Positions 2,252-33,045 of a stretch of 36,308 bases of DNA are shown here, one piece after another. Below the pieces are notes generated by a model that saw only the letters and a list, made by a program, of their open reading frames with translations, made no database searches and had not been told where the DNA came from. Source of the DNA: a virus (taxonomy: Duplodnaviria > Heunggongvirae > Uroviricota > Caudoviricetes); the IMG/VR virus record IMGVR_UViG_2563366905_000008; one strand, 5' to 3'. Each line of letters opens with the position of its first letter. Position 1 is the first letter of the stretch. Both the position numbers and the translations under genes were made by a program.

Positions 2252-2638
2252 TTAATCCCGGTCGTCATCCGGTTCGTCATCGTCTTCAAATAACTGCCCC
2301 TGTAACCGGCTGATTTCTTCTTTTCTTACACGCTTCACCACGCTGTAGACCCACTGAAGCGAAACACCAAATTTGCGGGCCAGTTCGTGGTGGTTGCGTC
2401 CGTTAAACTCCCTGAAGATTTCCCGGTCGCGCTGACTGACCTTCCATACCATGCCCATCGGAAAATAAACGTTTTGCCCGCCCCAGACCTGCATCATGCG
2501 GTTCGCGACGGCCTGACCAATCTGGTCGGCAACTTCGGGCTCAATATCAATAATCTCGCGAACGGTCTCAGAGGTATGCTGTGCCAGTTCCACCAGGAGT
2601 TCCGGCCCTTTACTTCGAAACTGATTCAGGTCGCTCAT
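2252..2638 (-). CDS. mor: Mor/C-family transcriptional activator (Mu middle operon regulator-like)
   Basis: 128 aa; C-terminal HTH region REIFREFNGRNHHELARKFGVSLQWVYSVVKR and acidic tail typical of Mor/C proteins; sits after the GemA-like gene as in Mu. Confidence 0.75.
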   Translation of the reverse strand: MSDLNQFRSKGPELLVELAQHTSETVREIIDIEPEVADQIGQAVANRMMQVWGGQNVYFPMGMVWKVSQRDREIFREFNGRNHHELARKFGVSLQWVYSVVKRVRKEEISRLQGQLFEDDDEPDDDRD

Positions 2639-5866: not shown

Positions 5867-7033
5867 TTAAACCCCTTTGACAACGTCAGCGTTGACCTGT
5901 GGAACCCCGATTTCAGCGGCCAGATTCATGGCGGCTATTACCAGGTTACTGACGGCCAGCGGATACAGCAGGCTGACCATATTTTTACGATGACTTCCCG
6001 GATTGCTCAGGCGGGCGCGTATGGCATCCACTGCGCTGGCGTCCATAATGTCCGTCAGTTGTTTACCGGCCCGTTGCAGTTTGAACGTCAGAAACTCTTC
6101 AAGGTTATTGTCCAGAGGCAGAAGTTCGACCACCTCACAGCGCTGAACGACTTCACGGACTTCCATATTGCGTTCAGACAGTTTTGTCGCCAGTTCCGGC
6201 TGGCCAATCAGCACGATGGACAGCAGTTTTTTGAAACCGGACTCCAGCTCAAAAAAGCGTTTGAGGTGTTTCAGTGTCGGAATAGGCAGACTGTGGGCCT
6301 CCTCAATCACCAGAACGTGGCTGAACCCCGCCTGGCTGCTGTCTTTCAGGACGCGATGCAACTGGCGAAAGCGGGCGTCCTGACTGCGTCTGATGCTTTC
6401 CAGTGGTGCGATGGTACTGATAATGGCTTCGGCAATCGCTGCTGCCTTCAGGGTTTTCCCTTTCACATCGTTGTCTTCCATAGCGATGATGTATGGCTCG
6501 ATAACAATTACCGGCGCATTCTCGCGGTTGATACGTTCAGTCAGGTCGCGGCGCAGCGTGGATTTACCCGCACCGGACTCACCGATGACGGCCATAAACC
6601 CACCATGACGGGCTGTCTGGTACAACGCCTCACGCACGTAGCGAATGTCCGGGGTGGTGAACACATCATCAGAACCCTGCATGGCTTCGTCGGCGAACGG
6701 GTCACGGAAAAGACCAAACGCTTTTTTGGTTGCCGGGAATAACACCTGTTTTTTGAGTAACATATTCTCTTCCTCACTGAGGCTCGTTTTATCTGTGGTA
6801 CCCGCTGTACGGGGCGTGGTCGCGCCCTGTACAGCATCAAAACTCTTCGCTGTATCAATCCCCTGACTTTCCAGCCAGGACGCAAGACGCCGGCGCACTT
6901 CTCCGGGGCTGGTGCGGGGCCACGCGTTATGATTCACAATCTGGGCCAGCGTGGCCTCAGAAACATCGACAGCTCTCGCCACCACCGCCTGTGGAATACG
7001 GGCCTCTTTCAGTTGCTGCTTCAGTACCAGCAT
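5867..7033 (-). CDS. Transposition ATPase (Mu B-like AAA+ protein with N-terminal HTH)
   Basis: Walker A GESGAGKST and Walker B VLVIEEAH. I place the start at the ATG at 7033 (MLVLKQQLKEA...), which has GGAGG upstream and sits just after the transposase stop. Confidence 0.85.
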   Translation of the reverse strand: MLVLKQQLKEARIPQAVVARAVDVSEATLAQIVNHNAWPRTSPGEVRRRLASWLESQGIDTAKSFDAVQGATTPRTAGTTDKTSLSEEENMLLKKQVLFPATKKAFGLFRDPFADEAMQGSDDVFTTPDIRYVREALYQTARHGGFMAVIGESGAGKSTLRRDLTERINRENAPVIVIEPYIIAMEDNDVKGKTLKAAAIAEAIISTIAPLESIRRSQDARFRQLHRVLKDSSQAGFSHVLVIEEAHSLPIPTLKHLKRFFELESGFKKLLSIVLIGQPELATKLSERNMEVREVVQRCEVVELLPLDNNLEEFLTFKLQRAGKQLTDIMDASAVDAIRARLSNPGSHRKNMVSLLYPLAVSNLVIAAMNLAAEIGVPQVNADVVKGV

Positions 7034-7043
7034 GTTTCCCTCC

Positions 7044-8813
7044 TCAGTTGCCGTTAACAATGCTGATAACACTGCTGCGGGCCGGTGTGGTCAGCGTGGC
7101 CATGACTTCATCCAGTGCGGCTTCCGGTACGCCGTCCGGGTACTGTGCCGTTAACTGGCGGTAATGTTCCGGCGTCCAGGTAAGGCCGTCGGCGCTGAAC
7201 TTATCGCGCAGGGCTTTCGCGGCCTCCACATGAGTCATGGGACGTTGTTCAGTGCGCGGCCCGCGTACGTCAGAGGCCTGACCACGCTTCGGCATATAGG
7301 CCGGAAGTGTGGTGTCGTCGATATGTTTATACGGGTCAAGCTGCCCGCCGAACGGCAGCGCCTTCGCCTTGCGTGCGGCGGCTGCATCTGCGGCGTTGTC
7401 TGTACCGGTAACCAGCGCTTCGGTTTCTTTTGCCGCCATCTGTGCCGGGGTTTCCGGCAGGGCTTTGTAACTTTCGCCAAATACCGCCGCGCCTTCAGCA
7501 AAGCCAAACTCGTTCTTTCTGACCTCTTCGACCAGGAAGAACGTCTCGTGGCCGTCCTCACCGGTCAGAACCACCTGTGCCACATCGCTGCGCCACGGGT
7601 TACGGGTAATCATCAGTTTTTCACCGACCAGTACGTCAGGTACCGTTGATACGTCAAATTCAGTGCCCCGGAACGAGACACGAAGTTTTGGCGTGACTTT
7701 GCGGAGTTCTGGTGCCGCCACAGCCAGTTCACGGCATACCTCAACGGAAGGCGCTTTTTTCAGCTGCTCAGCAGTAATCTTCAGCCAGATATCCGTGCGG
7801 GTTTTACCGTGGCGGCTGTGAACAGCCGTGGCGTTAAAGTGGCTGCGCCATTTCGCGGCCAGCGCGTTGAGTTCTTCCAGACTGTGAACCGGCCGGAACT
7901 TCAGACCCGGCTCCAGCTTGCGTTCGATAATGTCACGCGCCTTTTCCACCTGTCCGGTGGCGCGGGCGTTATGCGGCTTGTGCGCTATCAGGTCGATGCC
8001 CAGTGAGCGGCACATGTTTTTCGTCATACCCGCGGTGTTTGCCGAGCCGGGGTCGAGATAGAGTATTTTCGGCACGCCGTGCAGCACGTCTGCGCCGCCA
8101 CGCTCCTGCATGGCGTTGATAAGCACAGAACACAGGTTCTCACCGGATTCCGCGCCCGTCACATACTCAACGTAAATCCAGCCGCTGGCATGGTCGGTAA
8201 TCTCGTAACTCCACACGCGGTCACTGGCGATACGGGCAAGGTTAGCGGGCTTGTTCTTGTAGAACTTCGCGCTGTCCATCACCTGCAGCCCTTTATGTCC
8301 ATTGCTCAGGTAGTAAAGCGTGCAGAGTGAGGCGTCAATCTGCCAGACATGATTGGGATGCAGACTGGCCACTTCGGTATGCGGCGCAGGGGCATCCAGT
8401 TGTTCCGGGTGCAGGCCATAGTTACGCAGGGCACGACTGATGGCATCTTCGGACAACGGGAAAAACTCACCGGTGGTTTCATCTGTTCTGCCTGCGGTGA
8501 TAAAGCCGTTAGCCCGCAGGGTTTCCACTGCATCTGCGATGGAATAGAGACGCTTACCGTTCTTGCGGGTGGCCTCACGCAGTGTGGCAGATATCAGCGC
8601 GGCTTCGTCGCGGGTCAGGGCGCTGCGCCCGGCATCGGCGCGTTTTTTGCGTTTATCAGTCACAGAGACCTCCTTCAGCCTGCGCAGCAGAGTGGCGCGG
8701 GACATGCCAAGTTCAGCACAGGCAGCGTCATATATTGCACCGCGTTTACCATGCCCCGCGTCACGTGCCGCGCGGGCGACATAAACCAGTCGTTCAGTCA
8801 GGGCAGCATTCAT
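7044..8813 (-). CDS. Mu-type DDE transposase (A protein)
   Basis: 589 aa; N-terminal HTH (GMSRATLLRRLKE); integrase-core motifs VWQIDAS, LYLDPGSANT and QVEKA; GGAGG RBS. Confidence 0.9.
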   Translation of the reverse strand: MNAALTERLVYVARAARDAGHGKRGAIYDAACAELGMSRATLLRRLKEVSVTDKRKKRADAGRSALTRDEAALISATLREATRKNGKRLYSIADAVETLRANGFITAGRTDETTGEFFPLSEDAISRALRNYGLHPEQLDAPAPHTEVASLHPNHVWQIDASLCTLYYLSNGHKGLQVMDSAKFYKNKPANLARIASDRVWSYEITDHASGWIYVEYVTGAESGENLCSVLINAMQERGGADVLHGVPKILYLDPGSANTAGMTKNMCRSLGIDLIAHKPHNARATGQVEKARDIIERKLEPGLKFRPVHSLEELNALAAKWRSHFNATAVHSRHGKTRTDIWLKITAEQLKKAPSVEVCRELAVAAPELRKVTPKLRVSFRGTEFDVSTVPDVLVGEKLMITRNPWRSDVAQVVLTGEDGHETFFLVEEVRKNEFGFAEGAAVFGESYKALPETPAQMAAKETEALVTGTDNAADAAAARKAKALPFGGQLDPYKHIDDTTLPAYMPKRGQASDVRGPRTEQRPMTHVEAAKALRDKFSADGLTWTPEHYRQLTAQYPDGVPEAALDEVMATLTTPARSSVISIVNGN

Positions 8814-9738: not shown

Positions 9739-10047
9739 TTACAAACGACTACCTGAAATGACACGTTGGTTGATTTCGTTAATACGATCCTGCGCTCGTG
9801 CCATCTCGTTACTGTGAGCCATGGCGATCTGCAGTAACTGGATGCCAGGAGCAAAACGTCCATTCTCCAGTTTCAGGGCCAGCCCTTCTTCAATGAGGGT
9901 GTTGAGTGCCCGGTTGATGTTTGCCGGTGACTCGTGCAGTGCTGCTGCCAGTTCACCGTTGGAAATACCGTTCAGGGCATGACCGCGCAGCGCTTTGAGT
10001 ACCCGGAGGATGCGACTGCCGGAGCTTGAAACATTCGTCTTACTCAT
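9739..10047 (-). CDS. Winged-HTH DNA-binding protein, hypothetical regulator
   Basis: Track ORF 9739..10053; the ATG at 10047 has better SD spacing. Product contains an HTH-like segment ISNGELAAALHESPANINRALNTLIEEGLA. Confidence 0.5.
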   Translation of the reverse strand: MSKTNVSSSGSRILRVLKALRGHALNGISNGELAAALHESPANINRALNTLIEEGLALKLENGRFAPGIQLLQIAMAHSNEMARAQDRINEINQRVISGSRL

Positions 10048-10099
10048 CTGCATACCTCTTTTTCAATATGTGATAATCTTTTTCGCATGCTGTATCTTT

Positions 10100-10288
10100 T
10101 TAAGCGGCGTCAGTGATGGTTTTTAATCCCAGCTTGACGGCGATTTCATGGGCTTTGCCATAGTTCGCTTTTACCTGTCCATTCAGTACGCGGTAAACCT
10201 CTGCTCGGGTGTAGTTGTTCTGTTTTGCCCACTGGGTAAAGGTGATTCCGTTGCGGCGGAAATGGGCTTTGACCTGCTCTGCAGTCAT
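10100..10288 (-). CDS. Small HTH DNA-binding protein (Cro/Ner-like early regulator)
   Basis: 62 aa; divergent from the repressor gene; AAGGAGG RBS; first gene of the minus-strand early operon. Confidence 0.6.
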   Translation of the reverse strand: MTAEQVKAHFRRNGITFTQWAKQNNYTRAEVYRVLNGQVKANYGKAHEIAVKLGLKTITDAA

Positions 10289-10340: not shown

Positions 10341-10358
10341 TATCCCAAAAATGGGATA
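10341..10358. promoter_or_regulatory. Candidate operator: 18-bp palindrome TATCCCAAAAATGGGATA
   Basis: Perfect inverted repeat TATCCCA-AAAA-TGGGATA in the divergent region between the Cro/Ner-like and repressor genes. Confidence 0.4.
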
Positions 10359-10728
10359 TGTAAATAGGTATTGGACAAAAATGTCACTTGGCTCACGATT
10401 AAAAGAAGAAAGAAACCGCCTAGGATTTAGTCAGTCTGAGTTTGCTGAATTGGTGGGGGCATCCTATAAAAGCCAATTGCGGTGGGAAAAGGATGAATCC
10501 GCTCCCGGAGCAGATGCTTTGGCAATTTGGGCTACTTTAGGGCTTGACGTGCTTTACGTTGTTACAGGACAGAGAGGGGATGTAATGACCAATGTTGTCC
10601 CAAAAATGTCACCAGAAAAACAAAAATTAATGGACGCATTTGATGAAATGACTCCGGAACAACGACGCTCATTTCTTGAGGTTGGGCGATTCTATACTCA
10701 ACCCAAACCAAGTAAATTTACAGGCTGA
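10351..10728 (+). CDS. XRE-family HTH repressor (immunity repressor candidate)
   Basis: HTH motif LGFSQSEFAELVGASYKSQLRWEKDE; divergent from the early operon. Alternative start at ATG 10381 (MSLGSRLKEE...) is plausible because the first start lies inside the palindrome. Confidence 0.7.
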   Translation: MGYVNRYWTKMSLGSRLKEERNRLGFSQSEFAELVGASYKSQLRWEKDESAPGADALAIWATLGLDVLYVVTGQRGDVMTNVVPKMSPEKQKLMDAFDEMTPEQRRSFLEVGRFYTQPKPSKFTG

Positions 10729-10814
10729 TTCTGACCCGGACACAAAGGACAGGTGGTTGATCTGGACGCTTTCAGAAAGCGCCGTCAGTAGCATGGCAGG
10801 AATGGGCTGATTTA

Positions 10815-10845
10815 CCGGAAAGCATTGTGCTTTCCGGTTTTGTTT
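10815..10845 (+). terminator. Intrinsic terminator downstream of repressor gene
   Basis: Perfect 9-bp stem CCGGAAAGC / GCTTTCCGG with 5-nt loop, followed by TTTTGTTT; abuts the stop of the convergent methyltransferase gene. Confidence 0.55.
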
Positions 10846-11609
10846 CAGAAGTTGCAGATTACCAGTTCACGGCGCGGCGTGGGTTTACCCGCCAGACTGT
10901 AGTTGATATTCACCGTCTGTATGTTCAGTTCAGTGAACACCCGACGCATCTGCGGAATGTCGTTCACCGAGATAATCATCTTTCCTCTGATGCACCGGGC
11001 CAGTTCTGCGAGTAGTGTGTAGTTCTCTTCAGGAAAATCCACACCATAGCCTTCCGTACCCAGGTACGGTGGGTCGCAGTAGAACAGCGTGTGCGGACGA
11101 TCATAACGCTCAATGCACTGTTGCCAGTCCATGTGTTCTATGACTGTTCTGGAAAGCCGCAGGTGTGCTGCTGACAGTTCTTCTTCAATACGCAGCAGGT
11201 TGAAGCGTGGCGGGGATGTGGTGGAGGTACCGAAGCTGTGCTCTGCCACCTTGCCGCCAAACGCCTGCTTCTGAAGGTAGTAGAACCGTGCCGCACGCTG
11301 GATATCCGTCAGTGTTTCTTCCGGGGTGATCTGCAGCCATTTGTAGATCTGACGGCTGACCAGCGCCCATTTGAACTGGCGGACAAATTCTTCCAGGTGA
11401 TGCTTTACCACCCGGTACAGATTCACCAGTTCACCGTTGATATCATTAATGACTTCGATCTTGCCGGGTGTCTTAAGAAAATAGAGCGCTGCTGCCCCAC
11501 AGAACGGCTCCACATAACATTCATGCGCCGGAAACAGCGGCAGAATGTGTTTTGCAAGGCGGCGTTTGCCACCAATCCATGGAACGATGGGTAATGTCTG
11601 CATTTTCAT
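10845..11609 (-). CDS. DNA N6-adenine methyltransferase (Dam-like, D12 class)
   Basis: 254 aa; AdoMet-binding motif EPFCGAAALYF near the N-terminus and catalytic DPPY motif (FYCDPPYLGTEGY). Confidence 0.85.
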   Translation of the reverse strand: MKMQTLPIVPWIGGKRRLAKHILPLFPAHECYVEPFCGAAALYFLKTPGKIEVINDINGELVNLYRVVKHHLEEFVRQFKWALVSRQIYKWLQITPEETLTDIQRAARFYYLQKQAFGGKVAEHSFGTSTTSPPRFNLLRIEEELSAAHLRLSRTVIEHMDWQQCIERYDRPHTLFYCDPPYLGTEGYGVDFPEENYTLLAELARCIRGKMIISVNDIPQMRRVFTELNIQTVNINYSLAGKPTPRRELVICNF

Positions 11610-11800
11610 AATCTGTAAGCCTTTTACAATTATTAAAAATATGGCAGGCTAGTCTGGTCTCGCGAGACTGACTGAACCTCGGTCGGCTCACAGCCACTTC
11701 TGTGGGACGATGGCCAGTCCGGTGGGTCCGAAGCACCGGGCTGGTCGTTCTTTCATGATGCGGCAGGGATAGTGGGATTTCTGTTAATGTGGTTTAGGGA

Positions 11801-12016
11801 TTATCCGGGGTGATTGTCTGCCTTTATCTGGTCCAGGGCATAAGTGATCCCTTCTGCAAAAACAGAAGTATCGAACTGCTTTTGTATTTCCTGAAAATGA
11901 ACAGTGGCACGACAGATACTCAGTTCTCCGCGATGTAACCGGATAATATCTTCCAGAACATTGTTCACTGCTTCGGCACGGCGCTGATGTTCTGTTAACG
12001 TTAATCGGGGATTCAT
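11801..12016 (-). CDS. Hypothetical small protein (71 aa)
   Basis: AAGGAG RBS 6 nt upstream of ATG at 12016; AT-richer than surrounding phage genes. Its start codon overlaps the divergent plus-strand ORF. Confidence 0.4.
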   Translation of the reverse strand: MNPRLTLTEHQRRAEAVNNVLEDIIRLHRGELSICRATVHFQEIQKQFDTSVFAEGITYALDQIKADNHPG

Positions 12017-12419
12017 GATGCACTCCTTAAATGATGATTTTTATGTACTCACCGGCAAAATATTCTGCCGATTACTGAACACGCATCCGGCACCTCAGGT
12101 TTTGATTTATTCTGGTTTTTTCCATATCCCGGACCAGGTTGATCACGACCAGAAAAAGTGCCGGTATTTTATTGATACGCTGATATGGCTTCGGGATAAC
12201 AGCTATATTCGTTACTCTCAGTTGCTGGCTGTGGGAGCGGCTGATGTCGTCCTCACGGAAAAAACGCTCTGTCTGCTCAATGCCATGCCGACCTTTCTGC
12301 AGCCCCGGCCCGTACCATTTAAAGAGTTGCTTCTGGATGCAGTAAAAACCGGCGAAAATGCAGTCATCGCTGAATGCGTATCCCGGATTATGCGTTACGT
12401 GTTTAATGAACGTAAGTGA
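12015..12419 (+). CDS. Hypothetical protein (134 aa)
   Basis: Uninterrupted 134-codon ORF in an AT-richer stretch where no minus-strand ORF exists. Weak RBS. The 3' end overlaps the convergent P-loop gene by 25 bp. Confidence 0.4.
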   Translation: MMHSLNDDFYVLTGKIFCRLLNTHPAPQVLIYSGFFHIPDQVDHDQKKCRYFIDTLIWLRDNSYIRYSQLLAVGAADVVLTEKTLCLLNAMPTFLQPRPVPFKELLLDAVKTGENAVIAECVSRIMRYVFNERK

Positions 12420-13138
12420 GGTTTATCTGCTGTCTGCATAATCCCGATAGCCAGTGCGAGGGGAAGTAATTCCGGGGAAACTCTTTCAAACAGCGATGCC
12501 CATTCTCCTCTCGCCATCACTCTGTCCAGCCCGCCCCCCAGCTGCATTTCAGCAATCTTCCTGATTTCCCGGAACAACGCCGCTTTGATCTCTTCATGCT
12601 CAGCTTTATTTTCCGGTGTCAGAATGTATTCGTCGAAGAACCGGGGAGGCTGGTTAACGGGGATTGTGTTTACCGGGATGTGTTCCTGTTTCCCGTACTT
12701 CGGGGACGAACAACATTCTGTTGGCTGACCGGTGAGTTTACGTAACTCCTTCATGAGCAGCTCCTGATCGTAAACTGTCATCAGTGCCGCAATGGTGGCA
12801 TGCAGTGCATCGGGCAGTATCCAGGGTTGCCGGCCCGTGGGGCATATAACATCCAGTAGCTCATTCGTCCGACAGATACGCTCCTCGCCGTATGACAACA
12901 GGCCCTGTCCCGTGTATTCCTCCAGCCTGATCACTGTGCCAGCCCGTGGCTTCTGCCAGGTCGTCAGATCATCGCCACTCATACGGCGCTCACCGTCCAC
13001 GTCTGCGGCATCGACAATGACGCTGTTTCCGAGTTCCTGTTTCACCACTTCCTCTATCCGCGCCAGTACGTAACTTTTACCGCTGCCCACAGGACCGGAC
13101 ACGGTGACAGTGATGACCGGATTCAGTGTATGTGTCAT
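12395..13138 (-). CDS. P-loop NTPase, small kinase-like protein, function unknown
   Basis: 247 aa; Walker A GPVGSGKS at residues 15-22, followed by an hhhhD-like VIVDAAD; GAGGAGA RBS 7 nt upstream of ATG. Confidence 0.6.
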   Translation of the reverse strand: MTHTLNPVITVTVSGPVGSGKSYVLARIEEVVKQELGNSVIVDAADVDGERRMSGDDLTTWQKPRAGTVIRLEEYTGQGLLSYGEERICRTNELLDVICPTGRQPWILPDALHATIAALMTVYDQELLMKELRKLTGQPTECCSSPKYGKQEHIPVNTIPVNQPPRFFDEYILTPENKAEHEEIKAALFREIRKIAEMQLGGGLDRVMARGEWASLFERVSPELLPLALAIGIMQTADKPHLRSLNT

Positions 13139-13198: not shown

Positions 13199-13218
13199 TC
13201 TTAACGCGCTTTAAAATC
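13199..13218 (+). promoter_or_regulatory. Candidate late promoter element, copy 1 of TCTTAA-N5-TTTAAWATC
   Basis: TCTTAAcgcgcTTTAAAATC, 50 bp upstream of the first lysis gene; same motif and spacing recur at 26296 and 32647. Confidence 0.35.
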
Positions 13219-13268
13219 CTTCGCGCCCTGTATTTGTGATGCTGTCTCCACCAGACAAGGAGACACAC

Positions 13269-13619
13269 ATGAAAAACCTGAAAAAATTCATTCCCCCTGT
13301 TAAAAAACCTCGCCTCAGCGGCTGGCTGCTGACCTCAGTGCTGTTGCTGGGCACCATCGCTCTGGTCTCACCACAGCAGTTACCTGTTGTGATCTACAAG
13401 CTGGCACTCATCACACTGGCAGCAGTGCTGGGTTACTGGCTTGACCGTTCGCTCTTCCCCAAAGCCCGTCCCGGTCAGTACCTGAAACATGACGACAGGC
13501 TGATGGCTGAAGGGCGTTTCCCTGTGCAGACCGGCCTTCACCTTGTATTTTCTGCTGCGTTAATCCGCCGTGCACTGATTGTTGCAGCGGTCTGTCTGGC
13601 TGTGGCAACAGGACTGTGA
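13269..13619 (+). CDS. Membrane protein, holin candidate
   Basis: AAGGAGA RBS 5 nt before ATG at 13269; about three hydrophobic helices; immediately precedes the endolysin gene. Confidence 0.5.
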   Translation: MKNLKKFIPPVKKPRLSGWLLTSVLLLGTIALVSPQQLPVVIYKLALITLAAVLGYWLDRSLFPKARPGQYLKHDDRLMAEGRFPVQTGLHLVFSAALIRRALIVAAVCLAVATGL

Positions 13620-20377: not shown

Positions 20378-20397
20378 TTCTAAAGCAGATTAAAATC
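20378..20397 (+). promoter_or_regulatory. Degenerate copy of the late-promoter motif upstream of the scaffold/protease gene
   Basis: TTCTAAagcagaTTAAAATC, about 55 bp upstream of the ATG at 20453; 4/6 and 8/9 matches to the two halves of the motif. Confidence 0.3.
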
Positions 20398-20452
20398 GCC
20401 GGGCCTGCATTTCTCACAAACTGTCTCCGACAACATAACGCGGGACAGCAAA

Positions 20453-21568
20453 ATGTCAGCCATTCACATTTTTAAAGCCGGTACTCATACCGATATGCAC
20501 GGCAAAAAACTGCCGTTCACGCCAGACGATCTTGCCGCCTGCGTGAAAGCCTATGACCCGTCCGTCCATGAAGCACCACTCGTGATTGGTCATCCCAGAA
20601 CGGAAGACCCGGCGTGGGGCTGGGTGAAAACCCTGTCGCTCAGCGGTGTCGATCTGATGGCAGAGCCTGCCCAGCTGGATCCGCAGTTTGCTGAGATGGT
20701 CACCGACGGACGATTCAAAAAAGTGTCCGCCTCTTTCTATCTCCCGGATTCACCGTCCAATCCGAAGCCCGGCGTGCTCTACCTTCGCCATGTGGGCTTT
20801 CTCGGGGCACAGCCACCTTCCGTCAAGGGGCTGAAACAGGTGTCCTTCAGTGAGCAGGAAGAAGGTGTGGTGGAGTTCGCCGACTGGCAGGCAATCACGA
20901 ATGCCTCCCTGTGGGGAAAGCTGCGCGATTTTCTGATCGCCCGCTTCAGTCTGGACGAAGCAGAAAAAGTCCTGCCGGAATGGCAGCTCAACAGTCTGCG
21001 CGAAGAGGCGTACCGCGACACACTGTCGCAGGATGCAGCAGGTGCACAATTCAGTGAGACAGGCCAGGTGCCGTCTTCCGCAAGTAACGAGGAATCATCG
21101 ATGACAAAAGAAGAGATTGAAGCCCTTCAGGAGGAGAACCGCCGCCTGAAGCAGCAGGCTGCTGATCGCGATGCGCGTGATGCACAGGTCAGACAGGAGC
21201 AACTGCATAAGGACAATGTGGCCTTTGCAGAAAAACTGGTCGCAGAGGGCCGTCTGGCTCCCCGCGCCTCCTCCGTGGTGGTTGCCCTGCTGGATGCCGT
21301 CGCCGGTGGCGACAAGCCGGTGGAGTTTGCTGAGGGGGAAAGCCGCACGCCGCTGGCCACCGCCTTCCGTTCATTGCTCTCCGACGGGGAGCCGGTGATG
21401 AATTTCGCCGAACAGGCCACAAAAGAGCGTGTCGGCGACACGGTGAAGGTGGATGTGGCGGAGTTTGCGGAAGCCGATCCTGAGCGTCTGGCCCTGCATC
21501 AGAAAGCAGTGGCCCTGTCGAAAAAAGAAGGCATCAGCTATGAGGCTGCTGTCGCACGCTGCCTGTAA
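20453..21568 (+). CDS. Head protease/scaffold protein (Mu I-like)
   Basis: 371 aa; central charged coiled-coil (EEIEALQEENRRLKQQAADRDARDAQVRQEQ); position immediately before the major capsid gene. Confidence 0.75.
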   Translation: MSAIHIFKAGTHTDMHGKKLPFTPDDLAACVKAYDPSVHEAPLVIGHPRTEDPAWGWVKTLSLSGVDLMAEPAQLDPQFAEMVTDGRFKKVSASFYLPDSPSNPKPGVLYLRHVGFLGAQPPSVKGLKQVSFSEQEEGVVEFADWQAITNASLWGKLRDFLIARFSLDEAEKVLPEWQLNSLREEAYRDTLSQDAAGAQFSETGQVPSSASNEESSMTKEEIEALQEENRRLKQQAADRDARDAQVRQEQLHKDNVAFAEKLVAEGRLAPRASSVVVALLDAVAGGDKPVEFAEGESRTPLATAFRSLLSDGEPVMNFAEQATKERVGDTVKVDVAEFAEADPERLALHQKAVALSKKEGISYEAAVARCL

Positions 21569-25464: not shown

Positions 25465-25985
25465 TGTCAAAGATTGAGATAAACCGAATCACGAATGCCA
25501 ACATCTATCTGGATGGTACTAACCTGCTGGGACGGGCTGAGGAAGTTAAACTCCCCGATGTCTCCATGATTATGCAGGAGCACAAGGCACTGGGGATGGT
25601 GGGTAAGGTGGAACTCCCGGCTGGTTTTGACAAACTGGAAGGCGAAATCAAATGGAACAGCTTTTACCGCGATGCGATGCTGTCTGCCGCGAACCCGTAC
25701 AGGTCGCTGGCACTGCAGTGTCGTTCCAGCGTCCAGCGCTACAGCTCGCAGGGGCTGATCGACGAAATCCCGCTGGTCACCTTCCTGACGATTATGTTCA
25801 AGAAGAACCCGCTGGGGACGTTCAAACAGCACGAGAACGCCGAGTTCTCCAGTAGCTTCACCTGCACGTATATCAGACAGGTACTGGATGGTGAAGAGCT
25901 GCTGCAACTGGACTATCTGGCCAACATCTTCCGGGTCGGCGGTGTTGATCAACTGACTGACTACCGCATCAATATCGGGGGCTGA
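25464..25985 (+). CDS. Tail tube protein
   Basis: 173 aa, ATGA-coupled to the sheath gene; P2 FII / Mu M-like size and position. Confidence 0.8.
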   Translation: MSKIEINRITNANIYLDGTNLLGRAEEVKLPDVSMIMQEHKALGMVGKVELPAGFDKLEGEIKWNSFYRDAMLSAANPYRSLALQCRSSVQRYSSQGLIDEIPLVTFLTIMFKKNPLGTFKQHENAEFSSSFTCTYIRQVLDGEELLQLDYLANIFRVGGVDQLTDYRINIGG

Positions 25986-26275: not shown

Positions 26276-26299
26276 AGGGGCTTCGGCCCCTTTCTTCTT
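26276..26299 (+). terminator. Intrinsic terminator after the 93-aa ORF
   Basis: GGGGC-TTCG-GCCCC hairpin followed by TTTCTTCTT. Confidence 0.55.
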
Positions 26300-26315
26300 A
26301 ATCCCCTTTAATATC
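26296..26315 (+). promoter_or_regulatory. Candidate late promoter element, copy of TCTTAA-N5-TTTAAWATC
   Basis: TCTTAAtccccTTTAATATC, 52 bp upstream of the tail chaperone start; overlaps the T-tract of the preceding terminator. Confidence 0.35.
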
Positions 26316-26367
26316 TGCCAGCCTCACCACCGGACATACTGCTCTGAACTTACACAGGAGCACGATC

Positions 26368-26703
26368 ATGTCACAGACCCAGTCCGATACTTTTACGCTG
26401 TCTTATCCCTTCACCACTGCTGCCGGTACCAGAATTGAGCAGGTTGAACTGAAACGCCTGACGGTAAAAGACCTGAAGCAGGTGCGCAAAATCAGCAAAA
26501 ACCCGGCAGACTGGGACGAACCGCTGATTGCCCGCAGTACTGGTCTTCTCCCGGAAGATCTCGACAATATGGACCTGGCTGATTACCTGCAGTTACAGAA
26601 ACGATTTCAGCTCATCACGGGGATGGGTGAGAGCGACAAAGGCGCTGACGCAGGCGCAGGGGCTGCTGGCGAGATGGTTCCGGTTTCAGCCGGGGGAGAT
26701 TGA
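26368..26703 (+). CDS. Tail assembly chaperone, short form (P2 E-like)
   Basis: 111 aa with AGGAG RBS; position between tube and tape measure genes. Confidence 0.7.
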   Translation: MSQTQSDTFTLSYPFTTAAGTRIEQVELKRLTVKDLKQVRKISKNPADWDEPLIARSTGLLPEDLDNMDLADYLQLQKRFQLITGMGESDKGADAGAGAAGEMVPVSAGGD

Positions 26704-32646: not shown

Positions 32647-32666
32647 TCTTAAACGCCTTTAATATC
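32647..32666 (+). promoter_or_regulatory. Candidate late promoter element, copy of TCTTAA-N5-TTTAAWATC
   Basis: TCTTAAacgccTTTAATATC, 32 bp upstream of the W-like ATG. Confidence 0.35.
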
Positions 32667-32697
32667 GGCGTTCCCGCACAGGGGCAATACTGCCCCC

Positions 32698-33045
32698 ATG
32701 AAAACAACCTCAGTATTCTGGCAACCGACCCTGCAGGCTCCCGGCGAAATTGTCCGGGGGCTGGATGATATCCGGCAGGCGATTCAAATTATCCTGCGGA
32801 CTCCCCGCGGCAGCGACCCGCATCGCCCGGAGTTCGGCAGCAATCTGCATCTTTATATCGACTGGCCTGTAGACCGGGCCATTCCGCATGTGGTGCGCGA
32901 ATCCGTCGATGCCATCCGGCGCTGGGAGCCCCGCTGCCAGCTTATGTCAGTTAAACCCGCCGTCGACGGCGAACATCTTACGCTCCGGGTGAGCTGGAAA
33001 GGCTCAGACGGACAGACCCGGACTCAGGAGCTGCTATGGCGCTGA
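32698..33045 (+). CDS. Baseplate protein W-like (gp25/lysozyme-like fold family)
   Basis: 115 aa; motif GSDPHRPEFGSNLHLYIDWP typical of gpW/gp25-family baseplate wedge proteins. Confidence 0.75.
   Translation: MKTTSVFWQPTLQAPGEIVRGLDDIRQAIQIILRTPRGSDPHRPEFGSNLHLYIDWPVDRAIPHVVRESVDAIRRWEPRCQLMSVKPAVDGEHLTLRVSWKGSDGQTRTQELLWR

Follow-up and report, generated by a model that had tools for sequence, protein, structure and literature searches.

The dam locus and its upstream spacer

The DNA analysed here (the window, 36,308 nucleotides in all) is a BcepMu-like transposable prophage of E. coli. The product of its dam gene matched PHROG 56 'DNA methyltransferase' (2.5e-99), and the relatives of this gene in RefSeq and GenBank are annotated as DNA adenine methylases. 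A gene for a Mor-family activator is located elsewhere in the window (2252-2638, minus strand), and HTH proteins of the phage are encoded at 10351-10728, 10100-10288 and 9739-10053. An ORF search of the spacer upstream of dam (11610-11800) found no com-like reading frame, and GATC was absent from 11600-11800 when the sequence was read, leaving this region without the Dam/OxyR site cluster of the Mu type. The sole ORF of the spacer, a 71-aa frame with a GTG start, was considered as a Com-like or other small protein and set aside, since it overlaps the dam start and would be broken by indels in the loops of related sequences.

The first-pass annotation had described in this spacer a 12-bp perfect palindrome and a 13-bp stem with a 9-nt loop, and both were present. 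The stem is formed by GGCCAGTCCGGTG (11712-11724) and CACCGGGCTGGTC (11734-11746), its two non-Watson-Crick positions being G.U on the plus strand and A.C on the minus strand as had been claimed, and it is followed directly by GTTCTTTCAT at 11747-11756. Taken alone, the palindrome is not unusual, with five perfect 12-bp palindromes in the window compared to 9.3 +/- 3.3 in dinucleotide shuffles. Stems of at least 13 pairs with at most two G.U pairs were rare in shuffles (0.15 per shuffled window), and the window had three overlapping matches at two places on the plus strand and none on the minus strand. Folding of both strands of the 191-nt spacer, a check that had been proposed, gave -74.2 kcal/mol for the plus strand (z = -3.5, equalled by 0/200 shuffles) and -50.1 kcal/mol for the minus strand (z = -2.4).

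The palindrome and the 13-bp hairpin are parts of a larger conserved element of about 11623-11760, and the observation was judged to be real because of this conservation, that is, recurrence together with compensatory changes in every helix. The spacer may well be the control region of the prophage dam gene, transcribed on each strand from one of a pair of convergent promoters with predicted starts ~92 bp apart (Table 1).

Table 1. Coordinates of dam and of the features upstream of it
Feature	Position	Strand	Basis or remark
dam	10845..11609	-	D12-class DNA adenine methyltransferase, 254 aa; gene under control
5' UTR of late dam mRNA, ~139 nt (predicted)	11610..11748	-	From two predicted starts
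RBS region GGCUUACAG	11613..11621	-	3 nt before AUG; target of anti-RBS segment
-35 hexamer TTTACA (predicted)	11623..11628	+	16-bp spacer to -10; from sequence
Extended -10 TGg-CAGGCT (predicted)	11642..11650	+	Conserved, 6-8 nt before palindrome
cis-antisense small RNA, ~100 nt (both ends predicted)	11657..11760	+	Covariance model, fold, pair counts, strand tests
Palindrome GTCTCGCGAGAC	11657..11668	+	Predicted 5'-terminal hairpin of RNA; hairpin also in dam leader
P5 5' strand UGACUGAAC	11669..11677	+	Pairs with 11747-11755
P3 hairpin UCGGCUCACAG, loop CCACUU, CUGUGGGACGA	11683..11710	+	Covariation
Anti-RBS segment CUGUGAGCC	11685..11693	-	Complement of P3 5' strand
P4 (13-bp hairpin of the first-pass annotation)	11711..11747	+	One extra U.G pair possible at base
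P5 3' strand GUUCUUUCA (the 'tail' after the 13-bp hairpin)	11747..11755	+	Covarying helix
-10 hexamer CATCAT of Mor-type late dam promoter (predicted)	11755..11760	-	Start predicted near 11748
Mor/C-type dyad TTAATGTGGTTTAG	11784..11797	.	Motif search; centre 42.5 bp from predicted dam start

Distribution and conservation of the element

A covariance model built from 31 relatives scored 104 bits on the plus strand of the window (11635-11757) and 13 bits on the minus strand, and in most of the other dam loci searched it located the element upstream of dam on the opposite strand. The element was found in 556 of 5426 complete E. coli genomes (about one in ten) and in many other genera, again with compensatory changes in every helix, and its loci span the Gamma- and Betaproteobacteria including Pseudomonas phage B3. 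Standard pairs occupied 91.7% of the pair cells compared to 71.2% in shuffles, 34 of the 36 pairs changed on both sides, and controls in which the pairing was slid had 26-50% of cells paired. Covariation in related prophages had been set as a test and the outcome was positive, all helices keeping their pairing over 94 distinct sequences.

A search of the whole window against Rfam release 15 at gathering thresholds gave no match. Relaxed to E <= 10 for 11400-12100, it returned only chance microRNA and lncRNA matches far below threshold, and 12 diverse family members yielded nothing except one tRNA elsewhere. The covariance model found no copy of the element in Mu itself including the mom region, and a literature search found no description of an RNA in BcepMu-like or Mu-like prophages or beside phage methylases. 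The element is a conserved, putative RNA control module, not catalogued before, that is located ahead of DNA-modification genes in hundreds of Mu-like phages.

Linkage to these genes was assessed with 108 IMG/VR loci collected by a DNA pattern blind to dam. A Dam homologue on the opposite strand adjoined the promoter in 97 of the 108, and several of the other 10 carried com, com with an N6_N4 methylase or com with Mom. The element was likewise located ahead of com-dam, com-N6_N4 methylase and com-mom operons, Com (PF10122) lying in some relatives between the element and the modification gene. All loci with a readable and identifiable flank had the element beside a DNA-modification gene or com, at its 5' end. 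The module and dam move as a unit between different phage contexts. In B3-like phages the element is located inside the tail operon on the opposite strand, and at these loci the late tail operon must read through it.

Structure of the predicted plus-strand RNA

The predicted RNA begins with a 5' hairpin, continues into a three-way junction in which P5 closes P3 and P4, and ends in a U/C-rich 3' end, with a predicted fold of -50.9 kcal/mol (z = -3.7). The arms of the palindrome forming the 5' hairpin covary in the family (e.g. GTTCTCGAGAAC, GTCATCGATGAC, GCCTACCGGTAGGC, GCTGCGTCGACGCGGC) and in most lineages the hairpin is a perfect palindrome through its centre. P3 had 92.7% of cells paired with 10 of 11 pairs changing on both sides, its lower-stem G.U pairs being conserved and its loop variable in sequence and length. 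P4 had 93% of cells paired and all of its 13 pairs changed on both sides (13/13), with G.U alternating with A-U and G-C on the plus strand and a loop usually beginning with UU. The junction motif CCUUGG/CCUCGG was conserved.

The tail GUUCUUUCA, described in the first-pass annotation as following the hairpin, is not a plain U-tract; it is the 3' strand of P5, which covaries and closes the three-way junction. In an alignment that was not fitted to P5, 87% of its cells were paired and seven of eight pairs changed on both sides. Variants included GGGAGAGC/GCUCUUUU, GGAAGC/GCUUCC, GGUAGC/GCUAUC, GACAGC/GCUGUC and CAGGGC/GCCCUG, and cognate duplexes averaged -10.0 kcal/mol compared to -6.0 kcal/mol for non-cognate ones (0/5000 permutations). 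Homology to relatives with different neighbours stops at about 11755.

Strand preference agreed with what had been noted for the single hairpin, as G.U pairs outnumbered A.C pairs on the plus strand by 506 to 165, about 3:1. The mean MFE was -50.7 kcal/mol for the plus strand and -38.2 kcal/mol for the minus strand, the plus strand being the better in 40 of 42 lineages, and P5, which lies outside the model, favoured the plus strand in 34 of 42. A reading by hand of window-type and Photorhabdus-type loci put the P5 3' strand beyond the predicted dam start. The earlier proposal of a plus-strand small RNA or regulatory leader is thereby supported for the plus strand through covariation, strand bias and promoter; a regulatory leader also holds, but on the minus strand.

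A simple terminator of hairpin plus U-tract seems unlikely, the 'tail' being a P5 strand. P4 is GC-rich and the 9 nt after it are the covarying P5 3' strand, the 8 nt after P5 contain on average 3.7 U (range 0-7), and a simple terminator scan picked out no more than a 6-bp sub-hairpin. The terminator, if there is one, may be branched.

Other structures were tried and dropped. A helix of AGCCU (11617-21) with AGGCU (11646-50) from RNAalifold had no compensatory and four uncompensated single changes, and its arms are better explained as the complement of the SD and the -10 hexamer. An outward extension of the palindrome hairpin through the -10 hexamer met uncompensated variants (TAGAAT, TAAGCT, TAGACT, CATACT). 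As a repeated operator the palindrome had no other copy (<=3 mismatches) at a regulatory position, with 11 matches compared to 15 expected. The single-sequence MFE of the window RNA contains a hairpin CUGACUGA/UCGGUCGG that is specific to E. coli and not conserved.

Predicted convergent promoters and the dam leader

TTTnCA occurs at a distance equal to that of the predicted plus-strand -35 hexamer in enterobacterial and many betaproteobacterial relatives. Among 43 lineage representatives the -10 hexamer had T1 in 37, A2 in 42 and T6 in all 43, its positions 3-5 varying without compensation. TG was at -15/-14 in 24 of the 43 (most other offsets 0-3, two others 14 and 8), and the end of the hexamer was 6-8 nt from the palindrome in 38. 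By its sequence the putative small RNA would thus have a promoter of its own opposite the leader of its target, as a cis-antisense RNA does. Two other candidates were discarded: the promoter predicted by a scan, TTTTCA-16-TACAAT (11603-11630), whose -10 position 2 is free to vary in relatives, and GAAAAT as the -10, a hexamer that is unconserved beyond the enterobacterial group.

On the minus strand, the predicted -10 hexamer of dam is 23 nt after the 13-mer of the dyad, a geometry common to four other late promoters in the window, which has five sites with a dyad, 23-24 nt and xAxxxT. CAnnnT was located 23-24 nt from the dyad in every relative in which a dyad was found, though the intervening sequence is non-homologous. 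The Mor dyad of Mu is centred at -43.5 (PMC4287176), and the comparable position of the dyad here suggests a Mor/C-dependent late promoter, with activation as a prediction. Given the two predicted start sites, leader positions 11657-11748 would be complementary to the small RNA, an overlap that would end some 35-48 nt short of the start codon.

The minus-strand MFE of the window pairs CUGUGAGCC with GGCUUACAG over 9 bp (duplex -15.9 kcal/mol), a predicted helix that would occlude the translation start. An equivalent duplex of -12 to -17 kcal/mol with covarying variants abuts the start codon in most lineages. Cognate pairs averaged -12.0 kcal/mol compared to -9.8 kcal/mol for non-cognate ones (0/5000 permutations), and the wobble pairs are G.U on the minus strand only. 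The helix was the stronger on that strand.

A proposed switch and its alternatives

The conserved structures, strand bias, promoter motifs with their geometry, anti-RBS complementarity and modification-gene linkage observed here may be read together as a convergent sense/antisense switch that restrains a potentially harmful late gene, a reading in which we infer the direction of regulation and to which we give an even chance. Both transcripts and their ends are predictions; so is the pairing of the two RNAs in the cell and, most of all, whether the effect is positive or negative. Under this switch a Mor-activated late promoter would start the dam mRNA near 11748 with a leader of 139 nt, in which CUGUGAGCC would form either a weak local hairpin or a pairing with GGCUUACAG just before the AUG that hides the RBS. 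A sigma-70 extended -10 promoter would make the structured RNA from 11657 to about 11760, fully complementary to the dam leader and with its 3' end on top of the dam promoter. The small RNA would most likely be a threshold-setting negative regulator. Its transcription would cross the dam core promoter, and the RNA would pair with stray dam leaders, beginning at the P4 loop, and either lock them in the RBS-closed form or expose them to double-strand RNases. The methylase would be made only in the Mor-driven late burst, which would also silence the small-RNA promoter. Untimely expression of Mom is toxic and is guarded against at several levels, among them through a competing promoter and through a block on translation (PMC3378877).

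Several observations count against this switch. The plus-strand -10 (CAGGCT/TAGGCT) is far from consensus and its GGC could owe its conservation to the anti-SD role of AGCCU in the leader, the RNA would end in a moderate U/C-rich tract only, a branched terminator would be unusual, and the model does not account for the exact symmetry of the 5' hairpin about its centre. In the B3-like lineages examined, anti-RBS pairing beside the start codon was not evident. A complete duplex of small RNA and leader would also sequester the anti-RBS segment, so that the RBS should open, and simple thermodynamics therefore favours activation over repression.

With the same architecture the small RNA could accordingly be an activator that strips the anti-RBS segment from the RBS or triggers its removal by processing, the dam or com leader being closed by default and expression needing both Mor-driven transcription and the RNA. 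We consider this rather unlikely, although the MFE of the window leader is the RBS-closed form and the P3 5' strand GGCUCACAG has almost the same sequence as the RBS region GGCUUACAG and is a perfect match to the anti-RBS segment. Relatives containing com have the com RBS inside the closed helix, which would seem to call for an opener of some kind; in Mu that role is filled by the dedicated activator Com (PMC3378877). Against an activator, late transcription from the convergent promoter should silence the RNA promoter at the very time the enzyme is required, and a constitutive activator would make a closed leader pointless unless the RNA were itself regulated. As far as we know, inhibitors make up nearly all of the cis-antisense RNAs that have been studied well in phages, plasmids and transposons. 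A broader version strikes us as doubtful to a similar degree: a widespread, uncatalogued two-strand RNA switch would gate phage DNA-modification enzymes of all kinds (Dam, N6_N4 methylase and Mom, both where Com is present and where it is absent). The antisense RNA with its three-way junction would be a positive key that captures the anti-RBS segment of a self-closing leader, and the phage-specific perfect palindrome at the start of the RNA would be an operator that sets the time at which the key is made.

The conservation might instead belong to a structured dam or com 5' leader on the minus strand together with promoter elements in the DNA, a functional small RNA being absent. The strand-specific, covarying anti-RBS helix would suit this, as would the complementarity of the discriminator and the P5 5' strand, which has no strand preference and fits a long leader hairpin. 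We nevertheless hold it to be improbable, as the roughly 3:1 excess of G.U over A.C and the greater stability in 40 of 42 lineages both fall on the plus strand, P5 favours that strand and is partly outside the predicted dam transcript in some lineages, and the plus-strand TGn-TAnnnT keeps a constant distance to the hairpin. There is a similarly slim chance that the plus-strand RNA is real with its main job elsewhere, as a trans regulator of host or phage mRNAs or in protein binding or titration, its place beside dam reflecting shared mobility. The three-way junction and CCUUGG/CCUCGG are conserved beyond what perfect-complement pairing needs, and the module travels as a unit with dam across phage contexts. 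Set against this are the constant place of the element at the start of DNA-modification genes or com where the flank was readable and identifiable, and the free variation of the hairpin loops, as expected of an RNA that targets its complement; no candidate for a target in trans emerged. That the element is a mere terminator or insulator hairpin, keeping stray plus-strand transcription from the late and lysis genes and giving a functionless RNA, appears highly improbable even with a GC-rich hairpin and pyrimidine-rich tail just upstream of a Mor-type late promoter region. A terminator needs neither three covarying helices and a closing helix that contains the 'tail' nor a dedicated promoter 100 bp upstream and conservation over two proteobacterial classes, and in B3-like phages, where the element is within the tail operon on the opposite strand, lysis genes need no insulation.

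To our knowledge, enforcement of the timing of such genes is known in detail only for Mu mom. The module described here appears to be a different, RNA-based solution to timing in a large group of transposable phages of Gamma- and Betaproteobacteria, among them the classical Pseudomonas phage B3 as well as a prophage present in about one-tenth of complete E. coli genomes. If confirmed, it would represent a new conserved RNA family suitable for Rfam, define a late promoter for dam and open the anti-RBS switch to testing. Confirmation would also correct annotations in which small "hypothetical" ORFs and extended dam starts are now called over the element, and provide a compact natural part for holding a toxic gene tightly off. 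Were the positive-key reading true, the module would act on a dangerous enzyme as an AND gate made of RNA and would be the counterpart of Com at the RNA level.

Comparison with known systems

In type I systems such as hok/sok and tisB/IstR-1, the toxic mRNA hides its own RBS and a structured antisense RNA binds upstream and keeps translation off. The module would share the self-closed RBS and the structured small antisense RNA binding upstream, but its product is a 254-aa enzyme rather than a small membrane toxin, it is part of the lytic cycle under a late activator, and no processing step is known for it. The sar RNA of phage P22 is a short RNA from a promoter inside the ant leader on the opposite strand and limits ill-timed ant expression. 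The likeness would lie in a short opposite-strand RNA from a leader-internal promoter limiting a gene that should stay silent at the wrong time; sar pairs directly with the ant RBS whereas here an intramolecular segment would close the RBS, and the two RNAs have no relationship in sequence or structure.

Interference between the convergent promoters pR and pL constitutes the lysis-lysogeny switch of coliphage 186, where neither product is a dedicated structured RNA. The two predicted promoters of the module likewise face each other less than 100 bp apart, so that the firing of one should interfere with the other, but one of their products is predicted to be a dedicated structured RNA. MtlS of Vibrio cholerae is a cis-antisense sRNA to the mtlA 5' UTR that represses translation by extensive complementarity and proximity of the loci (PMC4615234). 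It resembles the module as an sRNA transcribed opposite a 5' UTR, and differs in acting on a host metabolic gene and in being an unrelated RNA which, in the part of the description consulted, has no three-way junction or anti-RBS leader switch.

The mom operon of Mu offers a further parallel, a late DNA-modification gene of a transposable phage that is under control and whose premature expression is harmful (PMC3378877). Both have, in the module by prediction, a dyad for a Mor/C-family activator centred near -43 (PMC4287176), a second promoter in the region that competes with that of the modification gene (momP2 in Mu; PMC3378877) and an RNA structure that hides the start region, and relatives of the element carry com and even mom. 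Mu, however, is without the element, and the window is without com and without GATC/OxyR sites in 11600-11800. The translational block is at the com-mom junction in Mu and upstream of com or dam here. No RNA product is known for momP2, which is a divergent promoter; the second promoter of the module is convergent and is predicted to make a conserved structured RNA.

Genomic setting of the dam gene

The prophage is BcepMu-like and transposable, with Escherichia coli as its host; the spacer region is 100% identical in E. coli strain A20, and phage PhiKM (genus Bcepmuvirus) shares 96% identity over 1.7 kb around it. Leftward early genes on the minus strand include those for a Ner-like protein, a transposase, Gam, GemA and a Mor-family activator (2252-2638), while the rightward lysis and structural genes begin with a holin at 13269. 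A three-gene cargo (11801-13138) separates the dam promoter from the lysis promoter and is missing in shorter relatives. A strong terminator-like hairpin at 10814-10838 (ACCGGAAAGCA-TTG-TGCTTTCCGGT, then TTTGTTT) sits between dam and a converging repressor-like gene (10351-10728, plus strand) and may work in both directions. The dam CDS annotated in PhiKM (L001 3038-3892) extends 90 nt further at the 5' side than the window ORF and runs into the leader and the element, as an extra A in an upstream A-run opens the longer frame. The conserved start codon and ribosome-binding site (RBS) point to the shorter ORF as the genuine gene.

Coordinates of genes, predicted late promoters and RNA helices
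Feature	Position	Strand or direction	Remark
dam	10845-11609	-	between early and lysis/structural blocks
5' hairpin (palindrome)	11657-11668	+	family alignment
P5 helix	11669-11677 with 11747-11755	+	family alignment
P3 hairpin	11683-11710	+	family alignment
P4 hairpin	11711-11747	+	family alignment
Predicted late promoter of dam	11755-11797	leftward	dyad 11784-11797, CATCAT 11755-11760
Cargo gene 1	11801-12016	-	PHROG 4490
Cargo gene 2	12015-12419	+	PHROG 2266
Cargo gene 3	12395-13138	-	PHROG 3787, has P-loop
Predicted late promoter	13201-13243	rightward	ahead of holin; hexamer GATGCT
Predicted late promoter	20381-20422	rightward	ahead of gene at 20453
Predicted late promoter	26298-26340	rightward	ahead of gene at 26368
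Predicted late promoter	32650-32691	rightward	ahead of gene at 32698

A conserved predicted RNA fold on the plus strand

The first-pass annotation had proposed a plus-strand small RNA or regulatory leader in the 190 bp upstream of dam, and the palindrome, stem and tail that it described were all located in the sequence. A 12-bp palindrome is by itself unremarkable (five in the window versus about nine in shuffles); a stem of at least 13 pairs with at most two G.U pairs is rare, at 0.15 per shuffled window. The sole other plus-strand hairpin of this kind (6804-6835) falls within a minus-strand ORF (5867-7072) beside the transposase gene. Folding of the spacer gave -74.2 kcal/mol (z = -3.5) for the plus strand versus -50.1 kcal/mol (z = -2.4) for the minus strand.

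Homology with phages of other gene neighbourhoods comprises dam and approximately 146 bp upstream, with a sharp edge at about 11755, directly past the hairpin and its tail. A Dam protein query of IMG/VR and one genome per species retrieved 160 loci, and the upstream element was alignable in Trabulsiella, Erwinia, Buttiauxella, Citrobacter, Serratia, Brenneria, Symbiopectobacterium, Photorhabdus, Xenorhabdus and a Francisella MAG. A covariance model built on 31 alignable loci matched most of the 99 further dam loci against which it was run, and the strong matches all lay immediately upstream of dam on the opposite strand. Hosts of the matches included Methylophilaceae, Nitrosomonas, Nitrosovibrio, Burkholderia, Paraburkholderia, Chromobacterium, Iodobacter, Aquitalea and Pseudomonas. 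By the same model the element is present in Pseudomonas phage B3 and absent from phage Mu. In B3 (L164 3239-3360; NC_006548 ~25725-25846, minus strand) it spans the annotated ORF46 and slightly overlaps the end of ORF45. Both encode very small hypothetical proteins and precede com (ORF47), and ORF46 especially may have been miscalled on top of the RNA gene.

The family alignment supported four elements: the 5' hairpin, P3, P4 (the 13-bp stem of the first-pass annotation) and P5. Pairing is conserved in related prophages, with 34 of 36 pairs varying on both sides among 94 distinct sequences. In the same set, standard pairs made up 91.7% of pair cells versus 71.2% in shuffles and 26-50% in slid controls, and the covariation score was 0.628 versus 0.240. 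P5 forms where a purine-rich stretch past the 5' hairpin pairs with the tail past P4, closing a three-way junction, and was an independent test since it was absent from the covariance model. Its covarying variants were GGGAGAGC/GCUCUUUU, GGAAGC/GCUUCC, GGUAGC/GCUAUC, GACAGC/GCUGUC, CAGGGC/GCCCUG and GACGGGU/GCCCGUC, and cognate duplexes averaged -10.0 kcal/mol versus -6.0 kcal/mol for non-cognate ones (0 of 5000 permutations as low). Because the P5 strands covary, the tail GUUCUUUCAU, which does follow the hairpin as first described, is a helix strand and not a plain terminator U-tract. The U/C-rich stretch after P5 averages 3.7 U per 8 nt, and a branched terminator at the RNA 3' end would be unusual.

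The preference for a plus-strand RNA was borne out, with G.U exceeding A.C (506 versus 165; 308 versus 81 outside the model-building sequences) and the plus strand folding better in 40 of 42 lineages. From hairpin start to tail, the mean fold was -50.7 versus -38.2 kcal/mol and the mean z -4.6 versus -2.7 for the plus and minus strands (42 lineages), and P5 favoured the plus strand in 34 of the 42. The G.U excess, fold energies and P5 preference together indicate that a plus-strand RNA is under selection.

In most lineages the 5' hairpin is perfectly palindromic across its centre, and its sequence varies between phages (centres CGCG, TCGA, GTCGAC, GTGCAC, CCGG, TGGCCA and ACGCGT). An RNA hairpin alone does not require perfect central symmetry, which hints at a dimeric DNA-binding protein or other constraint, and the palindrome may serve as an operator spanning +1 to +12.

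Predicted convergent promoters and the predicted dam leader

The promoters, start sites and RNA 3' end given here are predicted from conserved motifs. In 38 of 43 lineage representatives, a hexamer precedes the 5' hairpin by 6-8 nt. The window has CAGGCT (11645-11650), most relatives have TAGGCT, and Burkholderia has TAGAAT. T1, A2 and T6 are conserved in 37, 42 and 43 of the 43, and the middle positions change without compensation elsewhere, the pattern of a -10 element and not of a helix strand. TG occurs at -15/-14 in 24 of 43 representatives versus 0-3 at most other offsets (14 and 8 at two), and a -35-like TTTACA (11623-11628) lies 16 bp upstream of the hexamer. The RNA is predicted to start at about 11657, where the palindrome begins, and would be about 100 nt long with a predicted end at 11757-11762. 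In Pantoea stewartii ATCC 8199 (L085), homology upstream of dam ends directly behind the -10 hexamer (…GGCAGGCTA) and gives way to unrelated sequence; the RNA gene there looks disrupted by an insertion or rearrangement.

The window contains five predicted late promoters of Mor/C type, in which a dyad of the type TTAAAC-N2-GTTTAA is followed after 23-24 nt by a hexamer xAxxxT. The dam dyad had no hexamer on its rightward side; a further dyad at 1982-1994 is without a clear hexamer. The centre of the dam dyad lies 42.5 bp from the predicted dam start, matching the Mor dyad of Mu at -43.5 (PMC4287176). Each relative with an identified dyad has a CAnnnT hexamer 23-24 nt away from it, and the intervening 23 nt are unrelated between groups. 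This geometry and its conservation make dam look like a Mor-dependent late gene, with an mRNA that should start near 11748 and a predicted leader of 139 nt, complementary to the small RNA across 11657-11748. The predicted RNA's 3' end overlies the dam -10. In the shortest arrangement, with dam back to back with holin, a single dyad has hexamers equidistant on both sides, which looks like a bidirectional late promoter for dam and the lysis genes. Such two-sided dyads also occur in L010, L011, L012, L014, L087, L093 and Photorhabdus and Xenorhabdus loci. In E. coli G5 (L003 3190-3270) a lone Mor-type dyad is flanked by CATGAT leftward and GATGCT rightward.

In the folded predicted leader, CUGUGAGCC, the complement of the P3 5' strand (11685-11693), pairs with GGCUUACAG (11613-11621), which ends 3 nt short of the AUG. 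In most lineages an equivalent duplex of -12 to -17 kcal/mol sits directly at the start codon, with matching variants CUGCAAGUC/GGCUUGCAG, CCGUGAGCC/GGCUCACG, CCGUAGGCC/GCCUACG and CCGUUGGCC/GCCAAUGG; the pairing was not evident in B3-like lineages. Cognate duplexes averaged -12.0 versus -9.8 kcal/mol when permuted (0 of 5000 permutations), and the helix is weaker when read on the plus strand (-9.4) than on the minus strand. The same mRNA segment could alternatively pair within the weaker P3 complement, giving a choice between open and closed RBS. The discriminator and the P5 5' strand share a short complementarity that shows no strand preference and fits a longer leader hairpin.

Association with DNA-modification genes

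A dam-blind DNA pattern (TAGGCT...GGCTCACAG...CTGTG) found 108 loci in IMG/VR. A Dam homologue lay on the opposite strand in 97 of them, 15-75 nt from the promoter or about 175-190 nt where an ORF, a Mu Com-like zinc finger, intervened. Several of the other ten loci carried com alone, com with an N6_N4 methylase (PF01555) or com with Mom (PF25680). The element precedes com and an N6_N4-family methylase or Mom-family protein in L194, L214, L246, L259, L257 and L270; in L270 com and the modification-enzyme genes read as one ORF. In B3-like phages the unit lies within the tail operon, in the order tail chaperone, element (opposite strand), com, dam and tape measure. The element consistently neighbours the 5' end of a DNA-modification operon, and judged from these arrangements the regulatory cassette has evidently been swapped among unrelated DNA-modification enzymes.

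Rfam release 15 gave no match at thresholds and nothing meaningful at E <= 10, and no description of the RNA was found in the searchable literature. Both antisense RNAs and leaders that occlude an RBS are familiar kinds of regulator. The element represents a new, widespread family whose architecture is unusual and which is tied specifically to phage DNA-modification genes.

Proposed regulation and comparison with Mu

The module would combine two convergent promoters with predicted starts about 92 bp apart, a dam leader able to close its own RBS and a structured antisense RNA covering that leader. The small RNA is most likely a negative, threshold-setting regulator. It would interfere with transcription from the dam promoter and would also pair with stray dam leaders. 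The opposite sign is a serious rival, as a full duplex of RNA and leader would sequester the anti-RBS segment and leave the RBS open, making the RNA an activator of dam. Late transcription would, however, switch off the RNA promoter at the very time the enzyme is needed, which argues for the negative sign. Inhibition is also favoured because cis-antisense RNAs of mobile elements are, to our knowledge, nearly always inhibitors, and because the P4 loop usually starts with UU, like the recognition loops of these antisense RNAs.

Premature Mom expression is toxic in Mu, where mom is restrained by an activator-dependent promoter, the competing promoter momP2 and a translational block lifted by Com (PMC3378877, PMC4287176). 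We read the module described here as answering the same problem in another way.
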